Shown here: positions 4,443 through 48,771 of the stretch, piece after piece
Numbering within the stretch: the stretch's first letter is position 1
Layout: every line of letters begins with the position of its first letter
Assembly (NCBI GenBank): GCA_041649675.1
Contig: JBAZMQ010000001.1
Coordinates: forward strand, 64,792-128,791
Direction: 5' to 3'
Source: Patescibacteria group bacterium
GTDB lineage: Bacteria; Patescibacteriota; Patescibacteriia; Buchananbacterales; UBA6539
Length of the DNA stretch: 64,000 nucleotides
Translations under genes and position numbers: made by a program
Notes under the pieces: model-generated
The model's database searches: none
What the model was told of the DNA's origin: nothing
What the model saw: the letters and a program-made list of their open reading frames with translations, nothing else

Positions 4443-4607
4443 ATTTTTTATGTTGATTAATTAAATTTGACTTTTATTAGCCAATTTATTAAACTAGCAG
4501 ACAGAATGGAAGAAAGAGTCGAACCTTAACAAATAGGCGAAAAAAGTCATTAGGTTCGATTATCCAATGGTTTAGGCGTAGTATAACTGGTGAAAGGATG
4601 GATACAC

Positions 4608-5318
4608 ATGGAGCATCACATAAAACAATCAGAAGTAAATAGGTTGATTCAAGAAACCTTGGGGAGGTGGCAAAAGCTCAAAGTCAGCGTGCCGCCCTGG
4701 GCAGCCTACAGTCCGATGGACTGGCGAAGGCAAATTGAAGAAGGCAAAGAGGGTTTGGACATTTCCGAAATGGTCAAATGGGGTCAGGGTTTGGACATTT
4801 CCAACTTTCCAGCATTAGGAGTTAAGCCTGACTTCAGTCAATGTGGCCTGGTGCTGATCACGGTGGAGAATACTTCCGAATATTGCCATAAGCTGATGTT
4901 TCAGCGGCAAAACCAGGAAACACCCTGGCATAAGCACGTAAATAAAAATGAAACAATTGGCGTTGGGGCCAGCCGCTGGGGCAAGCTAGGCATCAGTTTG
5001 TACAATTCCAACGAGATTGATGGCTGTCCGGATTATATGAAATCGGTCCGAGTGAAAGTCAACGGTTGTTGGCGTACAGTGAAGGCTGATAATCCAGTTC
5101 AACTGCAGCCGGGTGAATTCATTACGCTACCAGCCGGAGTCTGGCATCGGTTTTTTGCCCTTTATGACGATGTCTCTTTGTGGGAAGTCTCGGCCCACAA
5201 TGACGACTTTGACGACAATAAGTTCTTGGTGCCTCGGGAGAGGTTTATGAAAATTGAGCCGGATGTGCTACCGGCATTTGTGCTTTGCAATGATCTGCAT
5301 AAGCTGTTACCCGTCTAG
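4608..5318 (+). CDS. Cupin-fold protein, D-lyxose isomerase-like (paralog 2, tandem duplicate)
   Basis: Collinear homolog of 3672-4379, including the same SD context (GGTGAAAGGAT) and terminator. A start at 4608 matches paralog 1 (MEHHIKQSEV vs MNYHMKRSEV); the ORF track starts at 4590. Confidence 0.45.
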   Translation: MEHHIKQSEVNRLIQETLGRWQKLKVSVPPWAAYSPMDWRRQIEEGKEGLDISEMVKWGQGLDISNFPALGVKPDFSQCGLVLITVENTSEYCHKLMFQRQNQETPWHKHVNKNETIGVGASRWGKLGISLYNSNEIDGCPDYMKSVRVKVNGCWRTVKADNPVQLQPGEFITLPAGVWHRFFALYDDVSLWEVSAHNDDFDDNKFLVPRERFMKIEPDVLPAFVLCNDLHKLLPV

Positions 5319-5334
5319 GGGAGGGAAGAGTTAA

Positions 5335-5382
5335 AAACACCTTTTTAAGCAAGATTTTCTTGGAAAAAGGTGTTATTTTTTT
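5335..5382 (+). terminator. Intrinsic terminator after cupin paralog 2
   Basis: AAACACCTTTT...AAAAGGTGTT hairpin plus T7; a duplicate of the 4398-4442 terminator. Confidence 0.65.
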
Positions 5383-5419
5383 ACCTCTTGACACCAATTT
5401 TTTTTATGGTATCATTAAA

Positions 5420-5446
5420 TTAGCACTCATTGCTAAGGAGTGCTAA
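5420..5446. promoter_or_regulatory. CIRCE operator (HrcA binding site) TTAGCACTC-N9-GAGTGCTAA
   Basis: A perfect match to the CIRCE consensus 10 nt upstream of the hrcA ATG; the hrcA SD (AAGGAG) overlaps the right arm. Confidence 0.9.
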
Positions 5447-5455
5447 TCCGAAATT

Positions 5456-6160
5456 ATGAACGAAAGACAGCAGGATTTACTGCAAATTATAATTTCTCAA
5501 TATATCAAAACCGCCCAGCCAGTCAGTTCTAATTTTATTACCCAGGCCGGCAGTTTTGATTTGTCGTCAGCCACGATTAGAAATGAAATGGCCGATTTGG
5601 AAGACCAGGGCTATATTTATCATCCGCACACTTCGGCTGGGCGGGTGCCAACGGAAAAAGGCTATCAGTTTTTTGTTAGTAATTTTTTAAGCGACAGTAA
5701 GTTAAGCAAAAAGCAGCAGGAGTTTTTGGATAAGTTAGTTGGTCAATATAAAACGTTTGAACCTTTGGCGCTTAAGGAGTTGGCTAAAGGAATTTCGGAG
5801 TTTTGCAACGGCGCGGTTTTTGTTGCGTTTTCTGACAATGATTTTTATTATACCGGTATTTCTAATTTGTTTTCTCAGCCCGAATTTGCCGAGCAAAAAG
5901 TCGTTTATAATTTAAGTCGAGTAATCGATCATTTAGACTTGGTAATTAATAAAATATTTGACGATATCGATTCGCAAGTTGAAGTTTTAGTTGGCAGCCA
6001 AAATCGGTTTGCCAAAGATTGCAGCTCAATTATGACAAAATACCAAGCCAAGAATGGCTCTGGTCTTTTGGGAATTTTAGGGCCATTGAGAATGGATTAT
6101 CAAAATAATTTTAGTTTAATTAAATATAGCCAGGGGCTGATTAATAGATTAGGAAATTAG
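5456..6160 (+). CDS. hrcA: Heat-inducible transcription repressor HrcA (short form)
   Basis: N-terminal wHTH region LSSATIRNEMADLEDQGYIYHPHTSAGRVPTEKGY is the HrcA signature; first gene of the dnaK operon and preceded by CIRCE. Confidence 0.85.
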   Translation: MNERQQDLLQIIISQYIKTAQPVSSNFITQAGSFDLSSATIRNEMADLEDQGYIYHPHTSAGRVPTEKGYQFFVSNFLSDSKLSKKQQEFLDKLVGQYKTFEPLALKELAKGISEFCNGAVFVAFSDNDFYYTGISNLFSQPEFAEQKVVYNLSRVIDHLDLVINKIFDDIDSQVEVLVGSQNRFAKDCSSIMTKYQAKNGSGLLGILGPLRMDYQNNFSLIKYSQGLINRLGN

Positions 6161-6224: not shown

Positions 6225-6725
6225 ATGCAAGACCAAGCACAATCACAAAACAATGAAATTAATATTGAAGAATTAAAGGCTGAGCTAATCTTAGCCCAAA
6301 AAAAAGCTGAAGAGCATTTGGACGGTTGGCGCCGAGCAAAAGCTGATTATTTAAATTTGAAAAAGGAGAGTGAAAGCCGGCAGGGTGAATTGATCCAGTT
6401 TGCTAACGCGGCCTTAATTGCTCAGTTATTACCGATTTTTGATCATTTTAAGTTGGCTTGCCAGCACGTACCAAAAGATGATGCCAAAAAAGATTGGGTA
6501 GTTGGGTTTTTTCACATTAAAAAACAGTTTGAAGATTTTTTAAAAAATTTAGGCATTGAAGAAATTAAAACAGTCGGTGAGAAATTTAATCCGGAATTTC
6601 ACGAAGCAGTAGTTCACGAAAAAATGCAAGGTTTTGAAGCAGATGAAATTTTTGAAGAAGTAAAGTCCGGTTATCTGTTATATGGCAAAGTTGTAAATCC
6701 GGCAAAAGTGAAAGTGGCAAAATAA
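6225..6725 (+). CDS. grpE: Nucleotide exchange factor GrpE
   Basis: 166 aa; coiled-coil N-terminus plus a GrpE C-terminal domain; operon position. Confidence 0.85.
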   Translation: MQDQAQSQNNEINIEELKAELILAQKKAEEHLDGWRRAKADYLNLKKESESRQGELIQFANAALIAQLLPIFDHFKLACQHVPKDDAKKDWVVGFFHIKKQFEDFLKNLGIEEIKTVGEKFNPEFHEAVVHEKMQGFEADEIFEEVKSGYLLYGKVVNPAKVKVAK

Positions 6726-6732
6726 ATTTTAT

Positions 6733-6845
6733 TTTGTCATTCTGAGGCCAAGGGCCGAAGAATCTCATACGATATTCATTGGTGTGAGATTCTTCATCCC
6801 GACTACCTGACTTAAATAAAAATAGTCGGGATTCAGAATGACAGA
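6733..6845. other. ~110-bp multi-hairpin structured element (outer 11-bp stem TGTCATTCTGA/TCAGAATGACA enclosing three inner hairpins)
   Basis: Nested inverted repeats: GGCCaagGGCC; GAAGAATCTCA...TGAGATTCTTC; ATCCCGACT...AGTCGGGAT. The last stem recurs at 58420-58445. Confidence 0.5.
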
Positions 6846-6870
6846 TAGTATTTAACAAATTAATCCAGCT

Positions 6871-6900
6871 TGTCTCGGGGATTTCCGAGAAGCTGTCAAG
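6871..6900 (+). promoter_or_regulatory. Hairpin immediately upstream of the hsp20 SD (candidate RNA thermometer/attenuator)
   Basis: cagcttgtctcgg-ggattt-ccgagaagctg ends about 4 nt before the AGGGAG SD. Confidence 0.3.
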
Positions 6901-6913
6901 GGAGAATAAAATT

Positions 6914-7327
6914 ATGACCTTAATTAAATGGACTCCGTTGGTTGAACCGTTTGAAGATATGGAGCGGTTTGTCAATCGGTCAGTAATGAATGGCTTCACT
7001 CCAGCTATTGACGTTTATGAAACTAAAGACAACGTGGTGATTGAAACGCCGCTAGCGGGCATTGATCCAAAAGATGTAGAAATTGCCGTGGAAAATGATG
7101 TTTTGACGATTAAAGGTGAAACCAAGAAAGAATCAGAAGTTGATGAAAAAAATTATTATCGCAAAGAAGTGGCGCGCGGCAGTTTCTTTCGTTCCGTGGC
7201 CATGCCTTCGCGCGTGGTAGCGGACAAAGCCGATGCCTCGTTTGCCGATGGAATATTAAAGATTACCATTCCCAAAGCCGAAGAAGCCAAACCAAAAACC
7301 ATTACGGTTAAGGTCAATAAAAAATAA
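6914..7327 (+). CDS. Small heat-shock protein (Hsp20/alpha-crystallin family)
   Basis: Alpha-crystallin domain (IDVYETKDNVVIETPLAGIDPKDVEIAVENDVLTIKGE...GILKITIPK). Confidence 0.85.
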   Translation: MTLIKWTPLVEPFEDMERFVNRSVMNGFTPAIDVYETKDNVVIETPLAGIDPKDVEIAVENDVLTIKGETKKESEVDEKNYYRKEVARGSFFRSVAMPSRVVADKADASFADGILKITIPKAEEAKPKTITVKVNKK

Positions 7328-7360: not shown

Positions 7361-9247
7361 ATGCCAAAAATTTTAGGAATTGATTTAGGAACCACAAATT
7401 CCTGTATGGCCATTATTGAGGGTGGTGAGCCCAAGGTGTTGGAAAACGCCGAGGGAGCGAGAACCACGCCATCAGTGGTGGCAATTAATAAATCCGGCGA
7501 AAGATTGGTTGGCCAAATTGCCAAGCGCCAAGCCGTAACTAACCCGGAAAACACTTTGTATTCAATCAAGCGGTTAATTGGCCGCAGATGGGAAGAAGAG
7601 GAAGTCCAAAGAGATTTGAAATTGATGCCATTTAAAATTGTTAAAGCGGGCGATGGTGTTAAGGTTGTGTTAAATGGCAAAGAATCTACGCCTCAGGAAA
7701 TTTCGGCTATGGTTTTGCAAAAGTTGAAAGCAGACGCAGAAAGTCGTTTGGGTGAAAAAATCACTGAAGCGATAATTACTGTGCCGGCCTATTTTAACGA
7801 TGCTCAGCGCCGGGCAACCAAAGATGCCGGGGAAATTGCCGGTTTGAAAGTTAAACAGATTATCAATGAACCAACCGCCGCGGCTTTAGCCTATGGGTTT
7901 GAAAAGAAGAAAGGCCAAAAGATTGCGGTTTACGATTTGGGCGGCGGGACGTTTGATATTTCCATTTTGGAAATTTCTCAAGATACCGTTGAAGTTAAAT
8001 CAACCAACGGGGATACTCATTTGGGCGGCGATGATTTTGATCAAGTTTTGATTGAATGGATTATTGCTGAATTTAAAAAAGATCAAGGCATTGATTTAGC
8101 TAAAGACAATTTAGCTTTGCAACGGATTAAAGAATCAGCCGAAAAAGCCAAAATTGAACTTTCCACCGCTCAAGAAACGGAAATCAATCAGCCGTTTATT
8201 ACCACTGATGCCGGTGGGCCAAAACATTTGGTTTTGAAATTAACTCGTTCTAAATTGGAAGAGTTAGTTGGCGAATTGGTTGAAAAAACCTTAGAGCCAT
8301 GCCGTAAGGCAATTGCTGACGCTAAGCTGGACGTGAAGGATATTGAAGAAGTAGTGATGGTTGGCGGAATGACTCGTATGCCTTTGGTTTTAAAGACCGT
8401 AGAAAAATATTTCGGCAAAAAACCAAATATTTCGGTTAATCCCGATGAAGTTGTCGCTTTGGGCGCAGCGGTTCAAGCTGGCGTTTTGCAAGGTGATGTT
8501 AAAGATGTGTTATTGCTTGATGTTACGCCGTTAACTTTAGGCATTGAAACCATGGGCGCGGTGGCTACCCCTTTAATTGAAAGAAATACCACCATTCCAA
8601 CTTCTAAATCACAAGTCTTTTCAACCGCTTCCGATAGCCAGCCCTCAGTTGAGATTCATATTTTGCAAGGTGAACGGCCAATGGCTCATGATAATAAAAC
8701 TTTGGGTCGGTTTATGCTAGACGGTATTCCGCCTGCTCCCAGAGGTGTGCCGCAAATTGAAGTGACGTTTGATATTGATGCTAATGGTATTTTGAATGTC
8801 TCGGCCAAAGATCGCGGAACCGGTAAAGAACAAAAAATTACCATTACCGCTTCGTCCGGACTTTCCAAAGACGAGATAGAAAAAATGAAAAAGGAAGCCG
8901 AAATTCATGCCAGTGATGATCAAAAAAAGAAAGAATTGATTGAAGCAAGAAATATGGCTGATACTTTGATTTATTCAAGTGAAAAAGGTGTTCGCGATGC
9001 CGGTGATAAGATTACTGATGATATTAAAAAGGATATTGAATCTAAGGTTGAAGAATTAAAGAAAATCAAGGATAGCGAAGATTTAGAAAGTATTAAACGC
9101 CGGACTCAGGAATTGAATGATGCGGCTCAAAAAATCGGTGAAGCAATCTATAAAGCTCAGCAAGCAGCCCAACCAGGCCAGCCAACGGGCAGCGAAGCTA
9201 AGCCGGAAGAAGGCGAAGTAGTTGACGATAAAGGTGACAAAAAATAA
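7361..9247 (+). CDS. dnaK: Molecular chaperone DnaK (Hsp70)
   Basis: 628 aa with canonical Hsp70 motifs ([27 protein letters not shown]). Confidence 0.97.
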
Positions 9248-9254
9248 CTATAAT

Positions 9255-9325
9255 TGAATCAGGAATTATGAATAAGGAATCAGGATCGCAAAGTTCCTGA
9301 TTCCTATTTCCTGATTCATAATTCA
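9255..9325. repeat. GAATCAGGA-repeat hairpin cluster after dnaK (partial terminator/attenuator)
   Basis: GGAATCAGGA-tcgcaaagt-TCCTGATTCC perfect 10-bp stem nested in an outer gaattatgaat/attcataattc repeat. Followed by TATTT only, which allows read-through. Confidence 0.45.
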
Positions 9326-9331
9326 AAATTT

Positions 9332-9619: not shown

Positions 9620-9698
9620 ATAAGCTTACAGCTGTTAGCTTATAGCTTTTAGTTAAAATCTTTCTAAAAGCTAACAGTTATAAGCTACAAGCTATTCT
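9620..9698. repeat. AGCT-rich palindromic intercistronic element (copy 2), before dnaJ
   Basis: taagcttacagctgttagcttatagcttttag...ctaaaagctaacagttataagctacaagctattct-ATG; related to 6161-6224. Confidence 0.5.
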
Positions 9699-17072: not shown

Positions 17073-17591
17073 TTATTTATATTTTCTTATACAGTCTACT
17101 TTACAGACACTTCTTTGGGTACCAGTTAAATTATTATCACTGCATTCATTTATGCAATCTTCGTATTTTGATTGAACCGATATATATTTTTGTCTTGATA
17201 TATATTTAATCGAGTAAACAATGCCGATCAATAATGTTACTACGACTATAGGCACAAATATACCAATAATAAATTGTTTATTAATCGAAGTAGTTTTTAT
17301 ATTACCTAACTGCGGTCTACTTTGTTTAGTCGCTTTCCATATCGATTTAATTATAAAATATAATCCTAAAATATTCAGGGCAAAGGCGATAAATGATGCA
17401 CCACCCCCGACCAGATATCCAACGTAATTACAAACAATAATTAACCCAAAACCAATAGCTAATGATAACAAAAGATTGTCGGTTGTTTTTTCGACAAATT
17501 TTGGTTCTTTCATAGAGTTAGTTTTAAAAAAATAATTAATATTGTTGTAATCAAAAAACCCACCGCTAGGGCGGTAGCTTGCGCTACCCAT
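17073..17591 (-). CDS. Membrane protein (3 TM) with Cys-rich C-terminal tail (CINECSDN...CKVDCIRKYK)
   Basis: Hydrophobic profile; the likely start is the internal Met (MKEPKF). Confidence 0.4.
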   Translation of the reverse strand: MGSASYRPSGGFFDYNNINYFFKTNSMKEPKFVEKTTDNLLLSLAIGFGLIIVCNYVGYLVGGGASFIAFALNILGLYFIIKSIWKATKQSRPQLGNIKTTSINKQFIIGIFVPIVVVTLLIGIVYSIKYISRQKYISVQSKYEDCINECSDNNLTGTQRSVCKVDCIRKYK

Positions 17592-17609
17592 ACTCCTTTC
17601 GGAATATGA

Positions 17610-17657
17610 CCTGGTTAAGGGATACCCTAAACGATGGGATCTATGTCCTTAACCAGG
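17610..17657. repeat. Inverted repeat CCTGGTTAAGGGA...TCCTTAACCAGG (13-bp arms, ~23-bp spacer)
   Basis: Located between the divergent membrane gene and gajA. Confidence 0.6.
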
Positions 17658-17810
17658 ATTTTCAGCCATGCCCCACAAATGCAAGGTTTAGGCTGGTTTG
17701 ATTGTACCCATTAATATTAATCTTTTTGCTAAATTTTGTAAATATTCGCTTGATTTTTGGCGTAAAAGGAGCTAATGTAAATTTAAAGCTATAAAAAATA
17801 ACCAATAAAT

Positions 17811-47096: not shown

Positions 47097-48771
47097 AACA
47101 ATAAAAGAAAACAGCTTAGCAATTTTGTTTTTCTTTATCGCTGCGGCTTTGATAATCTGGCAGCTGTTTTTACCCGGTTACGTTTTAACTTTGGATATGG
47201 TTTTTACGCCAAAAATAAAAATATTTTTGGCTAGTGGTGAGTTTTATAATAGCCTACCTTTTAAGTATTTGTTGGCCGCTGTCAATTATTTATTGCCCGG
47301 CTGGGTTATCCAAAAAATTGTTTTTCTTTCATTATTTTTTTCAATTGGCTATTTGGCTTATTATTATTTACCGCTGCCAAAAAAGAATTTTGCTCCGTAC
47401 TGGGCTGGCCTGTTTTTTTTGGCCAATCCTTTTGTCTATGAAAGATTTTTGGCCGGAAATTGGCTGTTACTTTTTGGTTATGCCGGCTTGCCATTTTTTA
47501 TCTATTATTTGCTGAAATTTTTTCAGCAGCCAAATTGGCCAAATAGTCTTGGGCTAGTTTTTAGCTTACTGCTAATTGGGCTTTTTTCTTTGCATCTGTT
47601 TACCATGGCAATCATTTTATTTTTTGGTTTGACAATTTATAAATTAATCAAAGCCGGGGTGGCTAAAAAAATTGATTTGGTCAAAAAAATATTTGTAAAA
47701 CTATTAATTGTTGGCATCTTAACTTTTTTGTTTAGTAGTTACTGGTTAGTACCATATTTTTTAAACGCCCAACAGTCAGTTATTAATAATTTTAATCAAG
47801 AACAATGGACAGTATTTAAAACGGCAACAAATTCCAGTTTAGGAACGACCTTAAATGTTTTGAGCCTTTACGGTTATTGGGGGGAAAACCAACCCTGGGC
47901 AAATTATTTTTTGTGGCCAAGGGCCAATTTTATTCCTTGGTTAATAATTGCAATCTTACTTTTTTGCCTGGTAGTTATCGGTTTTTGCCAAGGGCGAAAA
48001 AGTAAAAACAGGGAAGTCACTGTCATTTTTTTGGTTGTTGGTTTGATGGGTTTTATTTTTTCCTGTGGGCTTAGCGATACTATTTTTAAAAGTTTAAATT
48101 TATGGCTTTTTAAACATATCTGGTTTTGGCAAGGATTCCGTGATAGTCAAAAATGGACCGCTTTTTTAGTTTTAAGTTACGTATTTTTTGGCGCCCTGGG
48201 GGTTGATGCCATCTTAGATTTTGCAAAAAGAAAAATAAAACCAGCGGTAAAAATTATTTTGATTATATTGTTTACCATTCCGGTTTTATACACTTATACA
48301 ATTTGGGGCGGCTTTGGCCGGCAGCTACAGCCAGTTTGGTATCCCAATAGTTGGTCTGAGGTGAACAAAATTTTAAATCAGGATCGGGCCGGGGATTATC
48401 AGGTCTTGTTTTTACCCTGGCATCAATATTTATCTTTTAAATTTAATCAGTATTTAATCATTCAAAATCCGGCTAAAGATTATTTTGATCAACCAATAAT
48501 TCAAGGAGAAAATATGGAATTAGGCGGCGTTTGGGGTCAGGGCCAAAATTTATTAGTTCAAAAAATTGAAGACATTTTAAGGCAAAGCAGTGATGAATCT
48601 CAGCCGGAAACACTAAGAAAGCTGGCTTTGGAGGGGGTAAAGTACATTATTGTAAGCCATGACTTAGAAGGAATGAAACAGGCCATTAATTTTATTCCTG
48701 TTGAGTCAGCTGAACTAAGGCAAGTTTTTGATGCTGAGGACTTGACTTTGTATCAAATTATGTTAAGATAA
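47047..48771 (+). CDS. Polytopic membrane protein (about 12 TM plus C-terminal domain), second GT-C-like candidate
   Basis: Topology only; alternative starts at 47074 or 47089. Confidence 0.4.
   Translation: MLLPFWIFPMKIKNMIKTIKENSLAILFFFIAAALIIWQLFLPGYVLTLDMVFTPKIKIFLASGEFYNSLPFKYLLAAVNYLLPGWVIQKIVFLSLFFSIGYLAYYYLPLPKKNFAPYWAGLFFLANPFVYERFLAGNWLLLFGYAGLPFFIYYLLKFFQQPNWPNSLGLVFSLLLIGLFSLHLFTMAIILFFGLTIYKLIKAGVAKKIDLVKKIFVKLLIVGILTFLFSSYWLVPYFLNAQQSVINNFNQEQWTVFKTATNSSLGTTLNVLSLYGYWGENQPWANYFLWPRANFIPWLIIAILLFCLVVIGFCQGRKSKNREVTVIFLVVGLMGFIFSCGLSDTIFKSLNLWLFKHIWFWQGFRDSQKWTAFLVLSYVFFGALGVDAILDFAKRKIKPAVKIILIILFTIPVLYTYTIWGGFGRQLQPVWYPNSWSEVNKILNQDRAGDYQVLFLPWHQYLSFKFNQYLIIQNPAKDYFDQPIIQGENMELGGVWGQGQNLLVQKIEDILRQSSDESQPETLRKLALEGVKYIIVSHDLEGMKQAINFIPVESAELRQVFDAEDLTLYQIMLR

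Follow-up and report, generated by a model that had tools for sequence, protein, structure and literature searches.

A TGTC-tagged palindromic repeat dimer between grpE and hsp20 of a Patescibacteria group bacterium and the possible link of its family to GIY-YIG nucleases

We analysed a stretch of 64,000 nucleotides from a Patescibacteria group bacterium (contig JBAZMQ010000001.1, positions 64,792 to 128,791; hereafter the window), in which a 109-bp palindromic element lies between the heat-shock genes grpE and hsp20. We are confident that this element is a head-to-head dimer of TGTC-tagged repetitive extragenic palindromic (REP) units which was acquired by insertion, and that it is not a thermometer of hsp20. 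The best overall explanation is probably a selfish and non-coding palindromic repeat that belongs to the CGTC-tagged REP superfamily and was inserted in one lineage of Patescibacteria. For the locus this result is deflationary, since a striking structure 5' of hsp20 is then an inserted repeat. Heat-shock control is better assigned to the operator of the repressor HrcA, the controlling inverted repeat of chaperone expression (CIRCE), and perhaps also to a small conserved leader hairpin. Moreover, the analysis adds Patescibacteria, with their reduced genomes, and phage contigs to the known range of CGTC-type REPs.

Architecture of the element

The initial annotation had described a multi-branched palindromic element of 110 bp between grpE and hsp20, with an outer inverted repeat of 11 bp around three inner hairpins. 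This description was borne out apart from the length, which is 109 bp (Table 1). The element starts 9 nt past the stop codon of grpE, and its outer repeat, TGTCATTCTGA (6735-6745) and TCAGAATGACA (6833-6843), is complementary at 11 of 11 positions. As single-stranded RNA or DNA it is predicted to form a perfect four-way junction with zero unpaired bases at the junction. By itself the element folds with -55.2 kcal/mol under RNA parameters and -31.7 kcal/mol under DNA parameters. The whole spacer as RNA reaches a dG of -73.8 kcal/mol (z = -8.0 against 200 dinucleotide shuffles), and its minus strand folds equally well (z = -8.2).

The element consists of two inverted copies of GTCA-NNNN-GA-(variable hairpin)-GA-N'N'N'N'-TC with the TGTC tags outermost (6735-6738 on the plus strand, 6843-6840 on the minus strand). 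In both units the stem opens with A-T type pairs (ATTCT.../...AGAAT) and the tail is CTC. A lone unit folds as a 5-bp stem, a tandem G.A/A.G and an inner hairpin, which has a stem of 4 bp and a loop of 3 nt in unit A (-11.2 kcal/mol) and a stem of 10 bp and a loop of 17 nt in unit B (-17.9 kcal/mol). Alternatively, the inverted units pair with each other and form P1 and P3 of the four-way junction, with P2 and P4 as the variable part. The complementary ends of the spacer between the units include one U.G wobble on the plus strand. An identical element is found in Logan SRR8542065 and ENA ERZ27247363, which are independent assemblies of the same organism. Therefore, it is not an assembly artefact.

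Rfam contained nothing relevant, neither for the whole window at gathering thresholds nor for both element regions at E <= 10. A weak match to chrB-a (E = 4.8) merely reflects the module GAGGC..GCCGAAGAAUC. The likeness of CUGA..GAAG to hammerhead and hairpin ribozymes was dismissed by inspection, as the core nucleotides are absent and P1 is fully paired. A literature search with sequence strings returned chance primer matches only.

Table 1. Features of the window, with positions counted from its first letter
Feature	Position	Strand	Description
Complete element	6735-6843	.	head-to-head dimer (tags outside) of two TGTC-tagged REP units
Unit A	6735-6764 with leading T (6736-6764 without)	+	T-GTCA-TTCT-GA-(GGCC AAG GGCC)-GA-AGAA-TC
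Spacer between units A and B	6765-6787	.	23 nt; ends TCATAC / GTGTGA complementary
Unit B	6788-6843 with leading T (6788-6842 without)	-	T-GTCA-TTCT-GA-(ATCCCGACTA..17 nt..TAGTCGGGAT)-GA-AGAA-TC
Inner hairpin of unit B	6796-6832	+	stem ATCCCGAC/GTCGGGAT, a REP stem type elsewhere
Hairpin P2	6747-6757		GGCC-AAG-GGCC
Hairpin P3	6756-6769 / 6782-6795		GAAGAATCTCATAC / GTGTGAGATTCTTC
Hairpin P4	6796-6805 / 6823-6832		ATCCCGACTA / TAGTCGGGAT
hsp20 leader hairpin (hairpin 4)	6866-6895	+	CAGCU-UG-UCUCGGG-GAUU-UCCGAGA-AGCUG; separate from the repeat
hsp20 Shine-Dalgarno (SD) sequence and start codon	6899-6916	+	SD AGGGAGAA at 6899-6906, GGGAG at 6900-6904; ATG at 6914
Related fragment	58402-58436	+	convergent spacer; GCC-AAG-GGC hairpin and (aGTt)ATCCCGAC-GTAAA-GTCGGGAT-CCC
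Promoter and CIRCE	5388-5446	+	sigma-70-like TTGACA-16-TATCAT (TG-extended); perfect CIRCE TTAGCACTC-N9-GAGTGCTAA directly after the promoter, 5' of hrcA
hrcA	5456-6160	+	
grpE	6225-6725	+	
hsp20	6914-7327	+	
dnaK	7361-9247	+	

Orthologous spacers

Homologues of GrpE place the organism within Patescibacteria, close to Candidatus Buchananbacteria. The gene order hrcA-grpE-hsp20-dnaK is kept in four sets of Patescibacteria relatives, whose contigs are given here by our L numbers. The grpE-hsp20 spacer comprises 188 nt in the window and 78 nt in L122, whose GrpE is 82% identical; in L122 it holds the SD-proximal hairpin only. The 109-bp element is also absent from the hsp20 leader of L249. In L125 the spacer contains unrelated AT-rich repeats and the SD-proximal hairpin, with a palindromic insert at 4478-4656, and in L127 a different insert of about 300 bp between 25-nt inverted repeats (CCAAATTCCAAATCTCAAATTCC / GGAATTTGAGATTTGGAATTT) together with a hairpin of other sequence. 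L123 carries another member of the repeat family with the same framework, wholly different inner hairpins and almost no spacer between the units. This member (4512-4596) begins 10 nt after the grpE stop codon and stands in place of the leader hairpin. Since the orthologous spacers either lack the element or carry another family member, it is an insertion and not a conserved regulator. For the junctions, filled and empty sites were compared between the window and L122 and between the sufB-sufC spacers of Azospirillum; the exact insertion boundaries were not placeable because the compared spacers have diverged too far.

Palindromic inserts also occur in L127 at 4475-4877 and 5301-5453. Palindromic elements seem to have landed repeatedly in the grpE-hsp20-dnaK spacers. 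Besides, REP units of the superfamily lie directly 5' of hsp20 in four relatives from the candidate phyla radiation (CPR), namely L259 (1411-1482), L276 (36-79), L288 (1456-1483) and L123 (4512-4596), which could reflect a preferred insertion site or a functional substitution.

The leader hairpin and the thermometer question

The architecture of the spacer had been likened to thermometers of the ROSE type, in which case the multi-hairpin leader would melt on heat shock and free the translation of hsp20. In favour of this are the location within a heat-shock operon, 5' of the gene for a small heat-shock protein, and a stable hairpin that stops 4 nt short of the SD. This fourth hairpin had been placed at 6871-6900; the hairpin is real and the 4-nt gap is right, but its coordinates are 6866-6895. 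It is found at the corresponding position in L122, L125, L249 and L127, where three pairs have changed on both sides in a compensatory manner, and 82% of the cells of its alignment are paired compared to 35-41% in slid controls. Moreover, stable hairpins are overrepresented in the hsp20 leaders of 46 CPR relatives (mean z of -1.49 vs -0.42 for the leaders of 34 other window genes; 50% vs 21% with z below -1.5), and in the distant relatives L251, L253, L254 and L282 SD-like purines lie within the 3' arm of the leader hairpin. In the window itself, GGAG at 6901-6904 can pair with CUCC at 6933-6936 in codons 7-8, with a predicted P of 0.6-0.99 depending on the context.

Nevertheless, a ROSE-like or other RNA thermometer is very improbable here. 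The element is missing from the orthologous spacers of L122, L125 and L127, and its family is found in all kinds of gene context. No thermometer family, including ROSE, scored at E <= 10 in 6650-6950. The SD at 6899-6906 lies outside hairpin 4 and is unpaired in the leader fold. Partition-function folding predicted that the element and hairpin 4 keep their pairing from 10 to 70 °C and that the SD remains unchanged from 10 to 50 °C. The GGAG/CUCC pairing is likewise predicted to be insensitive to temperature and is not common to the closest relatives, where SD occlusion is inconsistent (P = 0.15-0.5 in L122, L125 and L249). Finally, the operon already has a promoter and a perfect CIRCE.

A comparison with known thermometers leads to the same result. 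ROSE, fourU and cyanobacterial hsp17 thermometers resemble the spacer in that several hairpins precede the gene of a small heat-shock protein within its leader. However, they pair the SD and/or the AUG in a weak, mismatched hairpin that is conserved before orthologues, whereas here a free SD and very stable structures go together with a large element that lacks conservation, and no model of Rfam fits. In ROSE, SD and AUG are paired in the 3'-most hairpin by an anti-SD of the sequence U(U/C)GCU that contains a bulged G. As hairpin 4 leaves the SD free, it is not a thermometer of the ROSE or fourU type. It is, in contrast to the repeat, a genuine and conserved element of the hsp20 leader, and its role could be that of a stabilising or processing structure or of a non-canonical thermosensor. 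A stable hairpin before the SD may be a clade-specific hsp20 leader element. The hairpins of the relatives at this position (L122, L125, L127 and L249-L294) are stable and differ in sequence.

The repeat family across bacteria and viruses

At least 120 loci in viral contigs contain CATTCTGAG-N4-20-CGAAGAATC, and at least 120 genome contigs (one genome per species) from more than 20 phyla contain GTCATTCTGAG-N4-20-CGAAGAATC. Among the matches listed are Nitrospirae, Chloroflexi, Paceibacterota, Saccharibacteria, Gracilibacteria, Komeilibacteria, Bacteroidota, Acidobacteria, alpha-, gamma-, delta- and epsilon-proteobacteria, Ignavibacteria, Omnitrophota, Verrucomicrobia, Firmicutes, Melainabacteria, Planctomycetes, Fibrobacter and others; four CPR lineages are represented among the genome contigs listed. 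Judged from these sequences, bacterial phyla share one repeat framework in which almost every base is conserved.

The 4-nt stem segment co-varies with its partner (TTCT/AGAA, TCCT/AGGA and TTGC/GCAA, further TTCC, TCCC and CCCT). These compensatory variants indicate that the hairpin of the single unit is the conserved feature. The base preceding GTCA was T or C in 236 of 254 units (T in 194, C in 42), common stem variants start with A followed by T or C, and the three bases following ...TC are most often TCA, TCT or TCG. The commonest form of the family is ATTCT-GA-GC-GNA-GC-GA-AGAAT, with an inner hairpin that mostly reads GCGNAGC, a motif that forms very stable hairpins in single-stranded DNA. 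Head-to-head dimers prevail (69, next to 19 tail-to-tail and 18 head-to-tail arrangements and 79 single units), and their median spacer of 23 nt (n = 111 non-redundant dimers) equals that of the window. Compared to a background of 61% unidirectional, 17% convergent and 22% divergent gene pairs, family sites (59 unidirectional, 29 convergent, 12 divergent) are enriched between convergent and depleted between divergent genes, so that the 3' sides of genes are favoured.

The stem of the inner hairpin of unit B had been reported to recur far from any heat-shock gene. This recurrence is real, and the related fragment spans 58402-58436. Within the window, ATCCCGAC-N-GTCGGGAT is confined to 6796-6832 and 58416-58436, with 0.00 occurrences expected by chance, and the latter is preceded at a distance of 5 nt by GCCAAGGGC (58402-58410). 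The fragment has both inner hairpins in common with the element, and the framework GTCATTCTGA/GAAGAATC is missing. It looks like a degenerate REP unit of the ATCCCGAC type. In the relative L253 the same stem forms a canonical TGTC-ATCCCGAC..GTCGGGAT-CC unit and it is also present in four viral contigs; unit B therefore looks like a REP nested inside a REP. Further matches to GCCAAGGGC at 47916 and 47987 lie within a coding open reading frame (ORF) and look like chance.

The convergent spacer that holds the fragment (58383-58638) continues with a chain of small GC-rich hairpins (GCGG-CAAGC-CCGC, GGCGC-TTA-GCGCC) and a bidirectional terminator-like stem, GGCCATTC..GAATGGCC, near 58586-58610; for this spacer there was no match in Rfam.

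Relation to known repeats

CGTC-tagged REPs were described by Di Nocera, De Gregorio and Rocco in 2013 (BMC Genomics 14:522; PMC3733652) in five phyla and include dRS3 of Neisseria and RPE-4 and RPE-6 of Rickettsia. Their terminal CGTC is often TGTC or CCTC, the stem of 8-9 bp opens with A-T pairs and encloses a loop of 4-5 nt, and the tail is mostly CCA. They occur mainly as head-to-head dimers, in which the tags point outwards and the spacers measure 20-100 bp, lie between unidirectional or convergent ORFs and "apparently lack a dedicated transposase" (PMC3733652). The present family agrees with them in the (C/T)GTC tag, which directly adjoins a stem opening with an A-T and then a T-A pair, in the prevalence of head-to-head dimers at intergenic, unidirectional or convergent sites, in the coexistence of several stem variants within one genome and in the lack of an associated transposase. 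It differs in its range, which spans more than 20 phyla together with phage contigs and includes Patescibacteria, and in its low copy number in the host; the link to GIY-YIG genes presented below lay outside the scope of the 2013 study.

The initial annotation had also considered a MITE (miniature inverted-repeat transposable element). A dispersed repeat family was confirmed, but it is REP-like, with tagged self-palindromic units, inverted dimers and no target-site duplication. A classical MITE would be a deletion derivative of an insertion sequence (IS) with a DDE transposase, moved by cut-and-paste via terminal inverted repeats. Bacterial MITEs such as Correia/NEMIS, RUP, ERIC and Nezha are similarly short (about 100-150 bp), intergenic and co-transcribed, and they form strong RNA structures which can alter mRNA stability. 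The element shares with them a length of about 110 bp, the absence of coding sequence, inverted ends and polymorphism among relatives. However, MITEs have IS-derived terminal inverted repeats and target-site duplications. In our 111 dimers no duplication was detected, as the identity of flanking k-mers equalled the permutation expectation for k = 2-5. The apparent terminal repeats are autonomous, self-palindromic units which also occur singly, tail-to-tail and in tandem. Moreover, no transposase family was enriched beside the units in the 120 viral and 120 genome loci listed; around the viral loci, ORFs formed clusters only of phage structural genes. We consider a classical MITE scarcely credible.

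The least probable of the explanations considered is a REP doublet (REPIN) mobilised by a REP-associated tyrosine transposase (RAYT), an IS200/IS605-like Y1 transposase, as known for GTAG-type REPs. REPINs and bacterial interspersed mosaic elements of Pseudomonas and Enterobacteria are likewise non-autonomous, inverted doublets of short imperfect palindromes that fold into one long hairpin or two. The dimer shares the architecture of a REPIN, in which two inverted REPs form a long hairpin (PMC3116915, PMC3337134). The GCGNAGC inner mini-hairpins would fit as well. In contrast, the tag of the present family is (T/C)GTC and not GTAG or GTGG, the REPIN enzyme is of the HUH/Y1 type, and among the ORFs near the units listed there was neither a RAYT nor any Y1-transposase cluster. 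Di Nocera et al. reported that RAYT genes of CGTC-positive species are never flanked by CGTC units (PMC3733652). Besides, RAYT/REPIN systems have lineage-specific sequences, whereas the present framework is identical across phyla, which calls for a shared, horizontally moving agent.

GIY-YIG nuclease genes bracketed by the repeats

Small GIY-YIG ORFs (PF01541) recur near the units in genome contigs. Two of them end inside a unit with ...DSSLRSE* and ...DPSLRSG*, the translation of GATTCTTCGCTTCGCTCAGAATGA. We also sampled loci by GIY-YIG protein similarity alone, which yielded 32 viral contigs with a homologue. Nearly all of these had a (C/T)GTC-tagged palindrome 20-100 nt past the stop codon and many had one before the start. 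The upstream unit is typically on the plus and the downstream unit on the minus strand, which places the GIY-YIG gene inside a head-to-head pair. With a strict detector, 32 units were counted in 16 kb of 250-nt flanks and 22 in the other 143 kb, i.e. the flanks are about 13 times denser.

Similar arrangements were observed in annotated replicons. A tblastn search of plasmids and chromids gave 35 records, mostly from Azospirillum, Sinorhizobium, Novosphingobium, Sphingobium, Neisseria and Rhizobium, genera in which CGTC REPs were described. All six records inspected showed cognate CGTC, CCTC or TGTC units on both sides of a gene annotated as "GIY-YIG nuclease family protein". These units are CGTCATCCCCGC..GCGGGGATCCAG dimers in A. 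lipoferum, dRS3 in N. gonorrhoeae, CCTCATCCCTGTG..CACAGGGATCCAG dimers in S. meliloti, CGTCGCCCCGTG..CACGGGGC in N. aromaticivorans, TGTCATTCTGAG..CGAAGAATCTC with the same framework as in the window in Planktothrix (P. agardhii), and TGTCATCCCGAGG.. in Spirosoma (S. oryzicola). The related units ATTCCCGC and ATCCCCGC beside GIY-YIG genes have the tail CCA. In Saccharibacteria, Gracilibacteria and two other metagenome-assembled genomes the left unit is of the TTCT type and the right unit of the TCCT, CTCT or CCCT type. Altogether, bracketed genes of 90-110 aa were found in alpha- and beta-proteobacteria, cyanobacteria, Bacteroidota, CPR and phage contigs (L361-L366, L329-L360, L133, L156, L238, L245).

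The nucleases belong to the bacterial Slx1-like or UPF0213 group (YhbQ-like; nearest structures PDB 1ZG2 and 1YWL) within PF01541; GIY-YIG homing endonucleases are a further system for comparison. The protein is WP_014249537.1 in A. lipoferum and WP_041550427.1 in N. aromaticivorans. Dunin-Horkawicz et al. described this group as a minimal stand-alone GIY-YIG domain with a presumed function in repair (PMC1564403). In the literature searched, which left most subscription journals outside its scope, no paper tied GIY-YIG proteins to REPs or reported a structure-specific activity on REPs, and bacterial Slx1-like proteins have so far been regarded as vertically inherited repair factors. Likewise, two recent surveys of REPs and MITEs contain no mention of Patescibacteria or of any connection to GIY-YIG genes (PMC12306157, PMC11602168).

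From these arrangements we tentatively propose that head-to-head REP dimers could derive from an element with a GIY-YIG gene, have lost the ORF and depend on the nuclease of that element. The parent element would measure about 350-500 bp and carry the same left and right units around a 90-110 aa Slx1-like (UPF0213) gene. The dimers might be moved or copied in trans by this structure-specific nuclease, which would act on an extruded hairpin, cruciform or four-way junction and nick beside the (C/T)GTC tag. Eukaryotic Slx1 cleaves branched DNA, among it stem-loops and Holliday junctions, and a REP dimer can extrude shapes of this kind. The logic is the same as in the REPIN 'REPtron', where a lone small nuclease gene bracketed by repeats is the proposed mobiliser. 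More generally, REPs tagged with CGTC, TGTC or CCTC, including dRS3-type units and the dimer of the window, may represent the ends of unrecognised minimal mobile elements whose sole gene encodes a GIY-YIG nuclease, a suggestion we make with similar reserve.

The main alternative is that the GIY-YIG gene is a free-standing homing endonuclease that inserts into REP dimers, the repeats being spread by another process. In N. aromaticivorans, L133 and L238 the gene lies exactly within the spacer of a head-to-head pair, and GIY-YIG enzymes are the classical homing endonucleases (PMC1564403). IS110-family elements and Nf phages likewise use REPs or dRS3 as targets. Most repeat copies have no nuclease gene, which was nearby in only 5 of the 120 repeat-selected genome loci listed, and no transposase is associated with CGTC REPs (Di Nocera et al., PMC3733652). 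On the other hand, within 50 kb of the A. lipoferum plasmid such units were found only at the flanks of the GIY-YIG gene, and in A. ramasamyi, A. oryzae and strain B510, whose flanks are 95-98% identical, the whole block of REPs and gene is absent between sufB and sufC. The repeats and the gene therefore arrived together. Furthermore, the right-hand unit of gene-bearing copies often supplies the stop codon of the gene, and the left/right asymmetry of these copies corresponds to TTCT/TCCT, the commonest combination among miniature dimers. We consider homing unlikely and prefer the nuclease-dependent derivative.

Several points weigh against our interpretation as a nuclease-dependent REP of the CGTC superfamily. 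The association of nuclease and repeats is a correlation, and it is equally possible that the gene encodes a homing endonuclease with REP dimers as its target. Among the 32 viral loci, several are near-duplicates and hence not independent. A looser detector of tagged palindromes was unspecific, with 46% of control windows positive, and was discarded as a statistic; weight was placed on the strict detector, the 50-kb backgrounds and the direct reading of flanks. The host is poor in repeats, with one dimer, one degenerate fragment and no second complete copy in about 80 kb of host DNA (the window, L375 and L377), compared to five units within 8.5 kb in the relative L123. Neither tblastn nor a profile search of six-frame translations found a GIY-YIG ORF in these 80 kb (window and 16 kb of flank). 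Consequently, recent mobility in the host genome is not demonstrated. Finally, the present family has a 5-bp stem, a tandem G.A/A.G, a variable nested hairpin (loops of 3-17 nt) and a CTC tail, which the four described CGTC families lack. Because of the interrupted stem, the variable inner hairpin and the CTC tail we filed it as a new family or member of the CGTC superfamily and not as a described one.

If mobilisation by the nuclease is true, CGTC REPs would have their 'missing transposase', bacterial Slx1-like proteins would gain a function, and the sharing of one framework by more than 20 phyla and their phages would be explained. The GIY-YIG association makes testable both what spreads CGTC REPs and what Slx1-like UPF0213 proteins do, and cultured strains are available for such tests in Azospirillum lipoferum 4B, Novosphingobium aromaticivorans, Sinorhizobium meliloti and Neisseria.

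Some further observations concern individual loci. The block of REPs and GIY-YIG gene in A. lipoferum 4B lies at 25376-25992 of L367, between sufB and sufC, and in Shinella sp. PSBB067 (NZ_CP069303.1, 1538663-1539756) the sufB-sufC spacer likewise contains a GIY-YIG gene, but another one with 45% identity. On plasmid p1 of P. agardhii all 24 GTCAT[TC]CTGA tags of 50 kb fall within 4 kb (L368 15405-17273 and 18544-19380), 11 of them inside an annotated MmeI coding sequence, and the GIY-YIG gene lies between MmeI and drmA of a DISARM defence operon. An 80-aa ORF beside the REP cluster of L123 had no match in Pfam.

Operon context and possible local effects

The strong sigma-70-like promoter and the CIRCE before hrcA are likely the heat-shock control point of the hrcA-grpE-hsp20-dnaK operon. 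No acceptable sigma-70 promoter and no U-tract terminator were found in the grpE-hsp20 spacer, and zero terminator-like sites were called on the plus strand in 6726-6913, where the stems run into GATAGT and TCAAGG. Therefore, the element is most likely transcribed within an HrcA-controlled polycistron. A promoter within the spacer, which would make hairpin 4 a 5'-terminal stem-loop, was rejected; the only match, TTGTCA-18-AAGAAT, lies inside unit A and is probably due to chance.

By analogy with REPs in other bacteria, one may ask whether the element affects this CIRCE/HrcA-controlled mRNA. We regard it as doubtful, though conceivable, that its role there is, at most, that of a barrier to decay or of a processing site; it is not a temperature sensor. 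The very stable structure might block 3'-exonucleases or be processed between grpE and hsp20. As it starts 9 nt after the stop codon, it could also dampen grpE translation or interfere with grpE termination.

Another reading is that the element, whatever its origin, was exapted and is selected at this site as an intra-operon attenuator, terminator or mRNA stabiliser. The perfect complementarity of its arms indicates a copy that is either young or maintained, and its distance from the grpE stop codon is paralleled by the L123 member. REP units abut the SD of hsp20 in L259, L276 and L288, and the L123 dimer replaces the leader hairpin. The U.G wobble favours the plus strand, and the preference of the family for 3' sides of genes would fit too. 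However, without a U-tract no intrinsic terminator was called, the closest relatives keep the operon and lack the element, and the nearly symmetric dimer carries no orientation information. Exaptation is thus improbable, and we retain the reading as an inserted selfish repeat.

Other structured sequences were noted in the window. In the same chaperone operon, the spacers between dnaK and the DUF3467 gene (9252-9326) and between the DUF3467 gene and dnaJ (9621-9695) each contain an AT-rich palindrome of about 75 nt. Both are made of short reiterated motifs and are unrelated to the REP family. A full-length match to the LOOT RNA family (RF03000) was found at 17573-17694 on the minus strand (93.6 bits, E = 1.3e-16).

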